A stretch of 64,000 nt of DNA from Escherichia coli (GTDB taxonomy: Bacteria > Pseudomonadota > Gammaproteobacteria > Enterobacterales > Enterobacteriaceae): NCBI RefSeq assembly GCF_030384885.1, contig NZ_CP128613.1. One strand, written 5' to 3'. Under the pieces are notes generated by a model that was given only the letters and a program-made list of their open reading frames with translations, searched no databases and was not told where the DNA came from. Position 1 is the first letter of the stretch; every line of letters begins with the position of its first letter. This document shows positions 29,713 through 31,759 of this stretch, in pieces. The translations under genes were made by a program, and so were the position numbers.

Positions 29713-30270
29713 ATGGTTTTATTAAAGAACAAAAGAAAAAGCAAGAAAGGTTTCTCACTACTCGAACTATTACTTGTTTTGGGCATCATTGCTGCATTAG
29801 TGGTAGCGGCTTTTATCGTTTATCCCAAGGTTCAGGCTTCACAAAGAGCGCAGGCAGAATCCAATAACATTGCCACCATACAGGCAGGTGTTAAAGCATT
29901 ATACACGTCGGCTTCAAGTTTTACTGGCCTGACAAATACTGTGGCTGTTCAGGCAAAAATCTTCCCTGACAATATGTTAAGTGGAACAGGCAATGCAGCT
30001 AAACCCATCAATGCCTTTAAAGGTAATGTGACGCTGGCTGCGGCAGCAACTGGCCCGTCATCAGCGGCTGGCTCTTCTTTCACTATTACATACGATAATG
30101 TGCCAGCAGCGGAATGTGTGAAAATAACCACTGCGGCGGCAGGCAACTTTTATACCGCTAAAGTCGGTTCAAAAGTTGTGAAGGCTTCGGATGGAACACT
30201 TGATGTGGCGGCTACGGCAGCAGCCTGTAATAACGCCACAAGTAATACATTAGTTTTCACGTCTATTTAA
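29713..30270 (+). CDS. Type IV prepilin (PilS-like major pilin)
   Basis: Class III signal: basic leader, KKG|FSLLELLLVLGIIAAL with Glu at +5; small Ala/Thr-rich pilin body. Confidence 0.7.
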   Translation: MVLLKNKRKSKKGFSLLELLLVLGIIAALVVAAFIVYPKVQASQRAQAESNNIATIQAGVKALYTSASSFTGLTNTVAVQAKIFPDNMLSGTGNAAKPINAFKGNVTLAAAATGPSSAAGSSFTITYDNVPAAECVKITTAAAGNFYTAKVGSKVVKASDGTLDVAATAAACNNATSNTLVFTSI

Positions 30271-30322
30271 TGAAGAGGGCGTAAGCCCTTTTCTTTCTTA
30301 TTGCTAAAACAGGGAGATAATT

Positions 30323-31759
30323 ATGATAAAGAAAAAAGGATTTACCTTACTGGAAGTCAGTATTGTTTTAGGTATTGGAACGCTTATCGTTTTTATGAAG
30401 TTTCAGGATATGAGAAACGATCAGGAAGCAGTATTGGCTGATAATGTCGGAACACAGATTAAACAGCTTGGTGAAGCAGTTAACCGCTATATCAGTATTC
30501 GCTATGACAAGATTTCCACACTGTCATCATCTAATAATCAAAGCAGCGATCCGGGGCCAAGAACCTGTTCGGCTGCTGGTTGCGAAATCACTTACCAGAC
30601 GTTAATTAATGAAGGTCTGTTGCCTGTAGGCTATACAGGAACTAACGCGCAAAAAGCATCCTACAAGATTGTGTTAAAACGTTCAGGAACAGCGCCGGAT
30701 TACGTCATTAATGGCCTTATAACAACCGCCAGCCCGTGGGAAGAAGGTGGTCGTATTCGTTATGACCTGTTAGGTAAAGCGGTTCAGGCGGCTGGTGTTG
30801 ATGGTGGGATGAGCAGAAACACCAAGATAGCTTCCGGCTATGGTGGTCAGTGGAGTGAGAACTCTAATAGCTACAGCAATATCACGGGTGGTGGATTGCT
30901 GGCTTACCGCGTGGGGTATAACTCTTCAATGTATTCTGTTTATCTGCGTCGTGATGGAACGTTGCCAATGACGGGTGATCTGAATCTTGGTGGGAAGAGC
31001 ATCAAAAACATCAAAGATATTACTGCATCAGGGACAACAACAACCGGGGCACTTAAGACAACGGGTAATGCGTCTGTTGCATCAGATCTGACTGTGGGTG
31101 GAACCTCGACCCTTAATGGTCCTGTAAATATCAACAACAACCTCAAGGTAAAATCCGATACCTATCTGAACACGCTATCAACAACAGGTCTGGCGAAGTT
31201 TGGTAGCCGTATTGCGACGAACGGACTTAATCCAAACGATTTGCCTGCTGGCTGGGCTGGCGGTGTTCGCACCTATGATTTGTATGCGTCGGGGACTGTT
31301 GGTGTTGGAACCGGTAAAACAGTTAAAGCTTACATGAACAATGCGGGTAATATTTATGCGTCAGGTAATCTTACCGCCGGGACGATAAAATCCAACGGAA
31401 CAATTGAATCAACAGGCAGAATCAAAGCAGGTGAATATCTCCACCTGAATGGTCAGGCAACGTTGAATGCGAAATGTACGCCTAATGGTCTGGTGGGGCG
31501 AGATAGTGTGGGGAAAATATTATCATGTGTCAGTGGAAAGTGGTCTGATCTTACACCCGCAGCAGCGTCAGGTATCTATGTTCGTTATTATAATAGCATC
31601 CAGTGGTCATGTCCTGTGCCTAACCGAGCAACCGGAGGCTGTTCATGTTCGACAGGTCTTAAAAGTATCATCATCAATACAGATTCAACTGAAACGTGTT
31701 CAGGAGTTAAAAACACGCACTGTAGAACATCGACAAAATACTTTTATGCTTGTGTTTAA
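30323..31759 (+). CDS. PilV-like type IV minor pilin / tip adhesin
   Basis: Prepilin N-terminus [19 protein letters not shown] followed by a Gly/Thr/Asn-rich beta-rich domain of about 450 aa, size and style of IncI PilV adhesins. Confidence 0.6.

Follow-up and report, generated by a model that had tools for sequence, protein, structure and literature searches.

We analyzed a 64,000-nucleotide stretch of Escherichia coli DNA (contig NZ_CP128613.1 of assembly GCF_030384885.1), hereafter the window, in which two prepilin genes, pilS and pilV, sit in a 22.4-kb island (11884-34292) inserted at a tRNA-Ser gene. Both genes are intact and stand beside a mobilization module. The features of this region are as follows, with positions counted from the first nucleotide of the window.

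26888-28369, minus strand: mobQ, encoding a MobQ-family (MobA-MobL) relaxase (NF041496, E=2.5e-74).
28370-29013, no strand assigned: the mobQ/traD intergenic region, 644 bp between divergent genes and, by analogy only, the expected place of the origin of transfer (oriT).
29014-29319, plus strand: traD, a Ti-type relaxosome accessory gene, frameshifted as judged by alignment with the intact traD of two related islands (L001 and L006).
29713-30270, plus strand: pilS, encoding a type IVb (T4b)-like major pilin (185 aa; leader, 13 aa; Phe at +1; Glu at +5).
30272-30293, plus strand: a terminator-like hairpin and T-run directly after pilS, recognized in the sequence.
30323-31759, plus strand: pilV, the whole gene, encoding 478 aa with a class III leader (Pfam Shufflon_N, E=2.5e-11, and N_methyl).
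30323-31543, plus strand: the constant part of pilV, aa 1-407, from Shufflon_N, the family alignment, and an AlphaFold (AF2) model.
31544-31759, plus strand: the Cys-rich C-terminal cassette of pilV, aa 408-478, beginning where similarity to E. coli islands breaks after the W407 codon.

The PilS leader, MVLLKNKRKSKKG, is followed by FSLLE, and the protein matched the Pfam families PilS (E=2.6e-29), Bundlin (E=7.5e-8), and N_methyl. Its head is of T4b type, with weak matches to the solved TcpA, BfpA, and S. Typhi PilS pilins, and its two Cys residues (AAEC..., AAAC...) fit a D-region disulfide. The definition of a T4b pilin by a long leader (15-30 aa) and a first residue other than Phe does not describe PilS, which has a leader of 13 aa and the site G↓FSLLE (↓, cleavage). 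The hairpin directly after pilS recurs at the same position, with a different sequence, in Klebsiella and Affinibrenneria islands. Such a hairpin would be predicted to give high pilS and low pilV expression, which is expected where a major pilin is made in excess over a minor pilin. Because a hairpin and a promoter-like site also precede pilS, we make no claim of a single traD-pilS operon. On the other side of the pair, 207 nt lie between the end of pilV and the next cargo gene.

The constant part of PilV runs in order through a prepilin signal, an alpha-1 helix, a pilin head, a Gly/Asn/Thr-rich stalk, and a neck ending in SCVSGKW. The AF2 model of PilV (predicted local distance difference test score of 68) contained an alpha-1 helix at residues 9-59, an alpha/beta pilin head at 86-198, and small beta domains at 336-410 and 418-477, with the Gly/Asn/Thr-rich stretch at 205-335 poorly modeled. 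Comparison of this model with the PDB by Foldseek gave no significant match, the best pilin being the T4b pilin of enterotoxigenic E. coli (9iuf; probability, 0.84), and a profile search of PDB sequences with PilV returned only the generic pilin N terminus. The C-terminal cassette is presumed to be an exchangeable receptor-binding domain.

No secretin, GspE/PilB-type ATPase, platform protein, or prepilin peptidase was found among the island open reading frames (ORFs) that we scanned (NCBIfam, 15 ORFs; PADLOC, 10; PHROGs, 9), and none of the pilus-assembly genes is listed in the RefSeq annotation of collinear, 95%-identical islands. The same holds across species. In a census of a one-genome-per-species collection, the mobQ-traD-(pilS)-pilV layout occurred without pil assembly genes in all 34 Enterobacterales loci, and homologues of PilN, PilO, PilP, PilQ, PilR, PilT, or PilU were found within 10 kb of 0 of these 34 loci. 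The positives of the census were the IncI1 and E. hormaechei plasmid loci, from which the query proteins were taken, and three beta-proteobacterial loci that contain assembly genes and a PilV 25% identical to ours. We observed the order relaxase, TraD, optional PilS, PilV, cargo, and integrase in E. coli, Klebsiella, Serratia, and Yersinia. These findings bear out what a first-pass annotation of the window had described, namely two class III signal-peptide pilins, an island lacking assembly genes, and a MobA-type relaxase on the same island. That annotation had also named loci always accompanied by complete pil operons as a sign of simple decay, and the opposite was found.

pilV is nearly always kept at the 34 loci, whereas pilS is present in about 12 to 14 of them, fewer than half. 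In the loci without pilS, we found no other prepilin ORF upstream of pilV, so PilV must be capable of joining filaments whose major pilin is foreign. The 5,841-bp K. aerogenes plasmid pMB5632_6, which has MobC and a relaxase, encodes a 390-aa island-type PilV (1013-2185) that is 37% identical to PilV of the window, keeps the junction motif of the islands, and ends in a P0014-group cassette. This plasmid is otherwise free of pilin genes and also lacks assembly genes. A Pluralibacter gergoviae island (L026, 8302-9861) has pilS in two tandem copies (197 and 189 aa), both upstream of pilV.

Pairwise comparisons among the window island, two E. coli islands, and a Klebsiella island gave ratios of nonsynonymous to synonymous substitution (dN/dS) of 0.01-0.10 for pilS, 0.05-0.17 for the constant part of pilV, and 0.12-0.28 for mobQ. 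pilS and pilV are thus under strong purifying selection. Intact pilS and pilV genes, always in the same arrangement, were found in 524 to 566 E. coli genomes and in many genera.

A total of 83 full-length PilV homologues share the invariant motif C-(S/T)-P-N-G-..-G-R-...-G-...-S-C-x-x-G-x-W, and beyond its terminal SCxxGxW they divide into at least 11 mutually unrelated cassette groups of 34 to 166 aa. N-terminal parts at least 90% identical were joined to unrelated cassettes in 73 pairs of these proteins, with the reverse combination in 4 pairs, indicating that cassettes have been exchanged at the neck joint. Nucleotide similarity to E. coli islands ends exactly after the W407 codon (31543). 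This joint corresponds to that of the IncI1 shufflon. The 19-bp sfx site of the IncI1 plasmid pEK204, GTGCCAATCCGGTACGTGG, encodes SCQSGTW (residues 357-363), which aligns with SCVSGKW (residues 401-407) of the window PilV, placing W407 at the end of sfx. Furthermore, four of the cassette groups, to which 53 of the 83 proteins belong, show full-length homology (35-56% identity) to shufflon segments from an IncI1, an IncI2, and an E. hormaechei plasmid; three of them gave E values of ~1e-21 to 1e-25, and the other gave 1.4e-06. Phage tail-collar domains occur in some cassettes.

The prepilin signal and Shufflon_N domain of shufflon PilV proteins are both present in the window PilV. In contrast, the 19-bp sfx sites, Rci with invertible segments, and a location in a pilI-pilV operon, which also define such proteins, are lacking. 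The DNA at the pilV junction is TGTGTCAGTGGAAAGTGG, and we detected no sfx sites in the window with up to 3 mismatches allowed. The sfx core motif, which the first-pass annotation had suggested seeking in homologous loci, was confined to the IncI1 and IncI2 control loci, being absent from about 40 island loci. The scanned island ORFs included no recombinase other than the integrase and hence no rci, and all islands had one cassette per locus with no silent cassettes. Involvement of sfx and Rci was rejected because the junction keeps the protein motif in DNA that is not sfx, with neither core nor silent cassettes. With no sfx, no rci, and a single cassette, we attribute cassette diversity to recombination between islands and not to inversion within a cell.

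The borders of the island were set by alignment with the empty site of E. coli 2013C-4282, to which the window flanks are 100% identical and in which zinT directly follows tRNA-Ser. The island is a precisely delimited insertion of low G+C content between copies of a 14-bp direct repeat, CCCTCTCTCCGCCA (11870-11883 and 34279-34292), that arises from the 3' end of tRNA-Ser. Its integration features are as follows.

11794-11883, plus strand: tRNA-Ser(CGA), the integration target (ARAGORN and Rfam), whose last 14 nt (11870-11883) are the left copy of the repeat.
34279-34292, plus strand: the right copy of the 14-bp repeat (attR), from a repeat search and the empty-site alignment.
32897-34114, minus strand: a P4-type tyrosine integrase gene, 26% identical in its product to the integrase of tRNA-Asn islands.

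The integrase gene lies at the island end distal to the tRNA gene (serU), and approximately 48 complete E. coli genomes carry this serU variant. Having its own integrase, att sites, and relaxase and no match to type IV secretion system (T4SS) or type IV pilus (T4P) assembly proteins among the scanned ORFs, the element is an integrative and mobilizable element (IME). It is a member of the Enterobacteriaceae-associated ROD21-like (EARL) islands, a published family whose backbone it has and whose kind is already known, and the window copy adds a serU-integrated variant to that family. The mobQ-traD-pilS-pilV block is 94-95% identical in nucleotide sequence to that of E. coli tRNA-Asn chromosomal islands and was matched in 566 to 821 of 5,426 complete E. 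coli genomes, depending on the query, with none found on the plasmids of these genomes. As in the definition of the family, there is a MobA/MobL (MOBQ) relaxase with a TraD homologue, though traD is frameshifted in the window copy, and a type IV pilin gene with a PilV-like gene, the former being as long (558 bp) as SEN1978 of ROD21. PilS is 81% identical to PilS of the ICEKp258.2-type locus, in keeping with a shared backbone. On the side of the integrase and excision module, the window island has a P4-type integrase only 26% identical to that of a tRNA-Asn island and, by collinearity with island L006, a small helix-turn-helix gene and a DUF6387 gene. The attachment site is a point of departure, as the family is defined by an Asn-tRNA and a family direct repeat and the window island uses tRNA-Ser(CGA). 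Published descriptions class EARL islands as mobilizable because they are without a T4SS and count genes for a type IV pilin and a pilus-related protein in the conserved backbone, with no assigned function. The 558-bp pilin gene SEN1978 of ROD21 is accompanied by a disrupted PilV-like gene.

In the mobQ/traD intergenic region we sought the nick site of oriT and found only short inverted repeats (28483-28509), none of which was identified as that site. The closest plasmid relatives of the relaxase are MOBQ plasmids of 3.5-4.2 kb with 45-52% identity. Inferring a helper from the relaxase was dropped, since these small promiscuous plasmids are uninformative. The other genes of the island are as follows.

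12105-13007, plus strand: a DUF6387-type gene at the left island end (ORF; annotation of L006, a collinear island of 95% identity), which may correspond to the SEN1998-like gene of the EARL backbone.
16894-17298, minus strand: an H-NS-family gene of the EARL backbone (a gene of the same size is annotated as H-NS family in L006; phrog_10171).
17990-18684, minus strand: a RepL-like gene (18127-18684) and repeats, the product being 96% identical to a RepL-annotated protein of L006.
21608-23705, plus strand: the complete anti-phage system Thoeris, a cargo, with ThsA at 21608-23077 and ThsB at 23094-23705 (PADLOC, E=8.9e-203 and 1.1e-85).
31967-32797, minus strand: a cargo gene for a 276-aa protein with a Cap12/TIR-like NADase region (NCBIfam Cap12, E=5e-10; phrog_16442).

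Just 3' of the RepL-like gene are six tandem 8-bp repeats, TTAGCTCT (17990-18053), which could be iterons, and gene and repeats may be a replication module of the excised island. The position of Thoeris is occupied in related islands by other cargo, such as a ComEA-family gene or type III restriction-modification (R-M) systems, and a TIR-domain gene directly follows pilV in the 95%-identical E. coli island L001. An ORF of 616 aa (14832-16682) matched only PHROG families of unknown function (phrog_18297, E=2e-53) and nothing in NCBIfam or PADLOC, and it is variable cargo absent from the collinear island L006. Outside the island, an Rfam EFASI RNA match (10078-10207; 90 bits) lies beside tRNA-Asn (10727-10802), where a related strain has integrase remnants, and this region may hold the remains of another island.

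Considering the module as a whole, we judge the chances to be about even that pilS and pilV are a conserved pilin module of an EARL-type IME that provides an adhesin assembled in trans for recipient contact in mobilization. PilS would be a T4b-type major pilin and PilV a minor, tip-type pilin with an exchangeable cassette of ~35-170 aa. Because the island has no peptidase, ATPase, platform protein, or secretin, both would be processed and polymerized by a type IV pilus machine, or one related to it, encoded at another place in the cell. The product would be a pilus tipped with the island adhesin, most likely serving donor-recipient contact in mobilization as IncI PilV does. IncI PilV mediates recipient recognition in liquid mating, and in R64 PilV the C-terminal segments bind recipient lipopolysaccharide (LPS) (PMC12282955). 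Specificity would change over evolutionary time by cassette recombination at the neck, with no shufflon. Candidates for the machine are the T4b pilus of a co-resident conjugative element and a chromosomal type IVa (T4a) pilus or type II secretion system (T2SS) apparatus. A broader proposal, which we advance tentatively and would not call probable, is that EARL islands and some small MOB plasmids load their own PilV, with a cassette pool shared with IncI shufflons, onto a foreign T4P machine so that the element and not the helper decides which cells are contacted and entered, a hijacking of the mating apparatus at the level of the adhesin.

Several observations weigh against a mating adhesin on a borrowed pilus. 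Relative to the intact 101-aa TraD of related E. coli islands, traD of the window has a 1-nt deletion in an A-run, which may be a real inactivation that impairs this copy for mobilization or a homopolymer sequencing error. For the 71-aa cassette of the window PilV, neither PLSDB (tblastn) nor three reference shufflons gave a match. Transfer experiments in the EARL family are limited to those with ROD21, in which pilV is a pseudogene and transfer reportedly was ~1e-8, needed the F-type plasmid pSLT, and was unchanged by relaxase deletion. These data are too weak for a helper to be named from them.

Also weighing against this proposal, identity of the island pilins to IncI PilS and PilV is 25-30% overall, with N termini unlike those of IncI1 and only moderately like those of IncI2. 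By pairwise BLASTP, island PilS was 27% identical to IncI1 PilS, with a range of 27-30% for IncI1 and IncI2, and the mature N termini differ sharply (G↓WGILEQ in IncI1 versus G↓FSLLEL in island PilS). PilS of IncI1 has a leader of 22 aa and PilS of IncI2 one of 28 aa, and their +1 residue is Trp or Ala. The IncI1 pilins read DKG↓WGILEQGTIALVV and DRG↓WASLETG, both with Trp at +1, and the alpha-1 segment of the island is FSLLELLLVLGII. The IncI2 pilins, DKG↓ATLMEVLLVVG and DKG↓VSLLEVLLVIG, are closer to the island in this N-terminal segment than those of IncI1. For PilV, alignment with the IncI2 protein was full length (26% identity), and alignment with the IncI1 protein was local only, the neck (aa 338-407) being 49% identical.

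A search of PLSDB for a plasmid with a complete T4b operon and a similar PilS (tblastn, E<1e-5) turned up none, which again does not favor the proposal. The best plasmid relatives of PilS (45% identity) are on 30- to 45-kb plasmids of Klebsiella, Citrobacter, and Enterobacter, and the one that we examined, NZ_CP055585.1 of C. freundii (L002), had no recognizable T4SS or pilus-assembly genes, Pfam and PHROGs scans of its large ORFs having given nothing useful. Among 1.84 billion representatives, a search returned 708 clusters with E<=1e-10, and the three cluster contexts sampled were short contigs or orphan pilins again. As a separate observation, NZ_CP055585.1 has three pilin genes, a DotA/TraY homologue, and an LPD7 protein. 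About 65 plasmids are similar to it (30-45 kb, typed as nonmobilizable, most with at least two PilS-like matches), and these may be another element class with replacement parts for an I-type transfer system.

The distribution of the module likewise gave no hint of an IncI helper. By inclusion-exclusion from three megablast searches of the 5,426 complete E. coli genomes, 566 genomes have the island module, 940 have IncI1 pilQ or IncI2 pilR, and 1,430 have either, from which 76 have both, against 98 expected by chance. IncI1 or IncI2 pilus genes thus occurred in 13.4% of island carriers (76/566) and 17.8% of noncarriers, slightly more rarely together than expected (odds ratio [OR], 0.72; Fisher p=0.0097, uncorrected for phylogeny). 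Co-residence is a weak proxy for past helpers and gives no support to IncI dependence. In addition, many host genera, such as Pectobacterium, Dickeya, and Brenneria, are plant associated or environmental, and IncI plasmids are probably uncommon in such genera.

Among the alternatives to a mating adhesin on a borrowed pilus, the one that survives best, a serious rival although we think it unlikely, is that the pilins are assembled by machinery of the chromosome, either the PpdD/Hof T4a pilus or a T2SS and its prepilin peptidase, mainly for adhesion, colonization, or biofilm formation of the host and not for conjugation. Both leaders are short, and the signature G↓F(S/T)LLE is typical of chromosomal T4a pilins and T2SS pseudopilins. 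Moreover, 87% of E. coli carriers are without an IncI1 or IncI2 pilus machine and yet the genes are strongly constrained, and tail-collar cassettes would suit general surface-glycan binding. We found no paper assigning a function to the island pilins, and one publication on ICEKp258.2 suggests DNA uptake or adherence in general terms, the latter being what this alternative proposes. However, PilS has a T4b-type head, the genes are always linked to mobQ and traD and occur also on a small Mob plasmid, and the cassettes are common to conjugative shufflons whose known ligand is recipient LPS. To our knowledge, there is no evidence that enterobacterial T4a machines assemble T4b pilins.

Less likely still, the pilins may be built into the IncI1 thin pilus after processing by PilU and assembly by PilN-R, thereby retargeting that pilus. 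The Shufflon_N and PilS families are typified by R64, the neck ends at the position equivalent to sfx, an IncI1 shufflon segment shares 53-56% identity with one cassette group, and IncI1 and IncI2 plasmids are common in E. coli, all of which fit this view. It is opposed by Trp at +1 and the divergent alpha-1 segments, by a PilS of low identity and a PilV that aligns only locally, by the lack of sfx in the window and the other island loci, by co-residence below expectation, and by a family widespread in genera where IncI1 is probably rare. The first-pass annotation had proposed incorporation into the pilus of an IncI-type helper and comparison with IncI1. Of this proposal, assembly in trans with an influence on contact specificity gains support from a cassette at the shufflon joint, and the IncI1 helper finds none in identity, N termini, or co-occurrence.

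We consider it very improbable that the island pilins act by interference, capping or poisoning the T4b pili of incoming or co-resident plasmids or blocking pilus-dependent phages. Such a role would accord with the defense-rich nature of the islands (Thoeris, TIR proteins, and type III R-M) and with the mild negative association with IncI1 and IncI2 pilus genes (p=0.01), but this association is weak and uncorrected for phylogeny, and interference leaves unexplained both a hypervariable, exchangeable cassette that is kept and the presence of a major pilin gene in some islands. That the genes are relics of a decayed pil operon, as the first-pass annotation had offered as its other explanation, is rejected as scarcely credible, since the missing assembly genes, the pilV pseudogene of ROD21, and the frameshifted traD of the window are set against dN/dS values of 0.01-0.17, presence in hundreds of E. 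coli genomes and many genera with no pil remnants, an assembly-gene-free layout at every one of the 34 species loci, and cassettes that turn over actively without loss of the reading frame.

Both the island family and its possession of pilin genes were already known from publications. New, as far as we found, are the homology of the joint to that of the shufflon, cassette exchange without a shufflon, and a cassette pool shared with IncI, together with the selection data, the universal lack of assembly genes, the dispensability of pilS, and the lack of an IncI association. These results give the proposal of the first-pass annotation a concrete, testable form. The pilS-pilV module occurs in approximately 10% of complete E. 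coli genomes and in many Enterobacterales, including epidemic K. pneumoniae ST258, which carries ICEKp258.2, and these islands ferry anti-phage defense and other cargo. If the pilins do serve recipient recognition on a borrowed pilus, this would explain the spread of the islands between genera, type IV pilins would join the parts of a helper apparatus that hitchhiking elements can replace, and cassette swaps would offer a simple, testable handle on the host range of mobilizable elements. If they instead act in adhesion via chromosomal machinery, they would bear on colonization by clones such as ST258.

Relative to known systems, the window island is most like other EARL islands (ROD21 of S. 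Enteritidis, ICEKp258.2 of K. pneumoniae ST258, and the E. coli tRNA-Asn islands), with which it shares a MOBQ relaxase, TraD, a type IV pilin, and a PilV-like protein as well as H-NS homologues, a RepL-like gene, low G+C content, and defense cargo. For the Klebsiella locus that we retrieved (L008), gene sizes are the same as in Table 1 of the paper on ICEKp258.2. These islands differ from that of the window in using a tRNA-Asn site rather than tRNA-Ser (serU) and in an integrase with only 26% identity. The papers on them give no function for the pilin genes and leave the cassette structure of PilV undescribed.

SGI1-type islands replace TraN, TraG, and TraH of the mating apparatus of their IncC helper. 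The likeness lies in a mobilizable island that encodes its own surface or contact parts of a helper transfer apparatus. The parts replaced by SGI1 are mating-pore proteins of a T4SS, as determined experimentally, whereas those of the window island would be type IV pilins.

The thin pilus of IncI1 (R64 and pEK204) and IncI2 (TP114-like) plasmids resembles the island module in having a major pilin and a PilV minor pilin, the latter with a constant N-terminal part and a variable C-terminal part joined at SC(Q/V)SGxW, and in sharing homologous cassettes in some cases. The two differ in sfx, Rci, and the pilI-pilU assembly genes, which are present in IncI plasmids and in none of the islands, and in constant parts that are 25-30% identical, with different cleavage sites and alpha-1 segments. 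Finally, PilV varies within a cell by DNA inversion in IncI systems, whereas in the islands it varies between elements by recombination.

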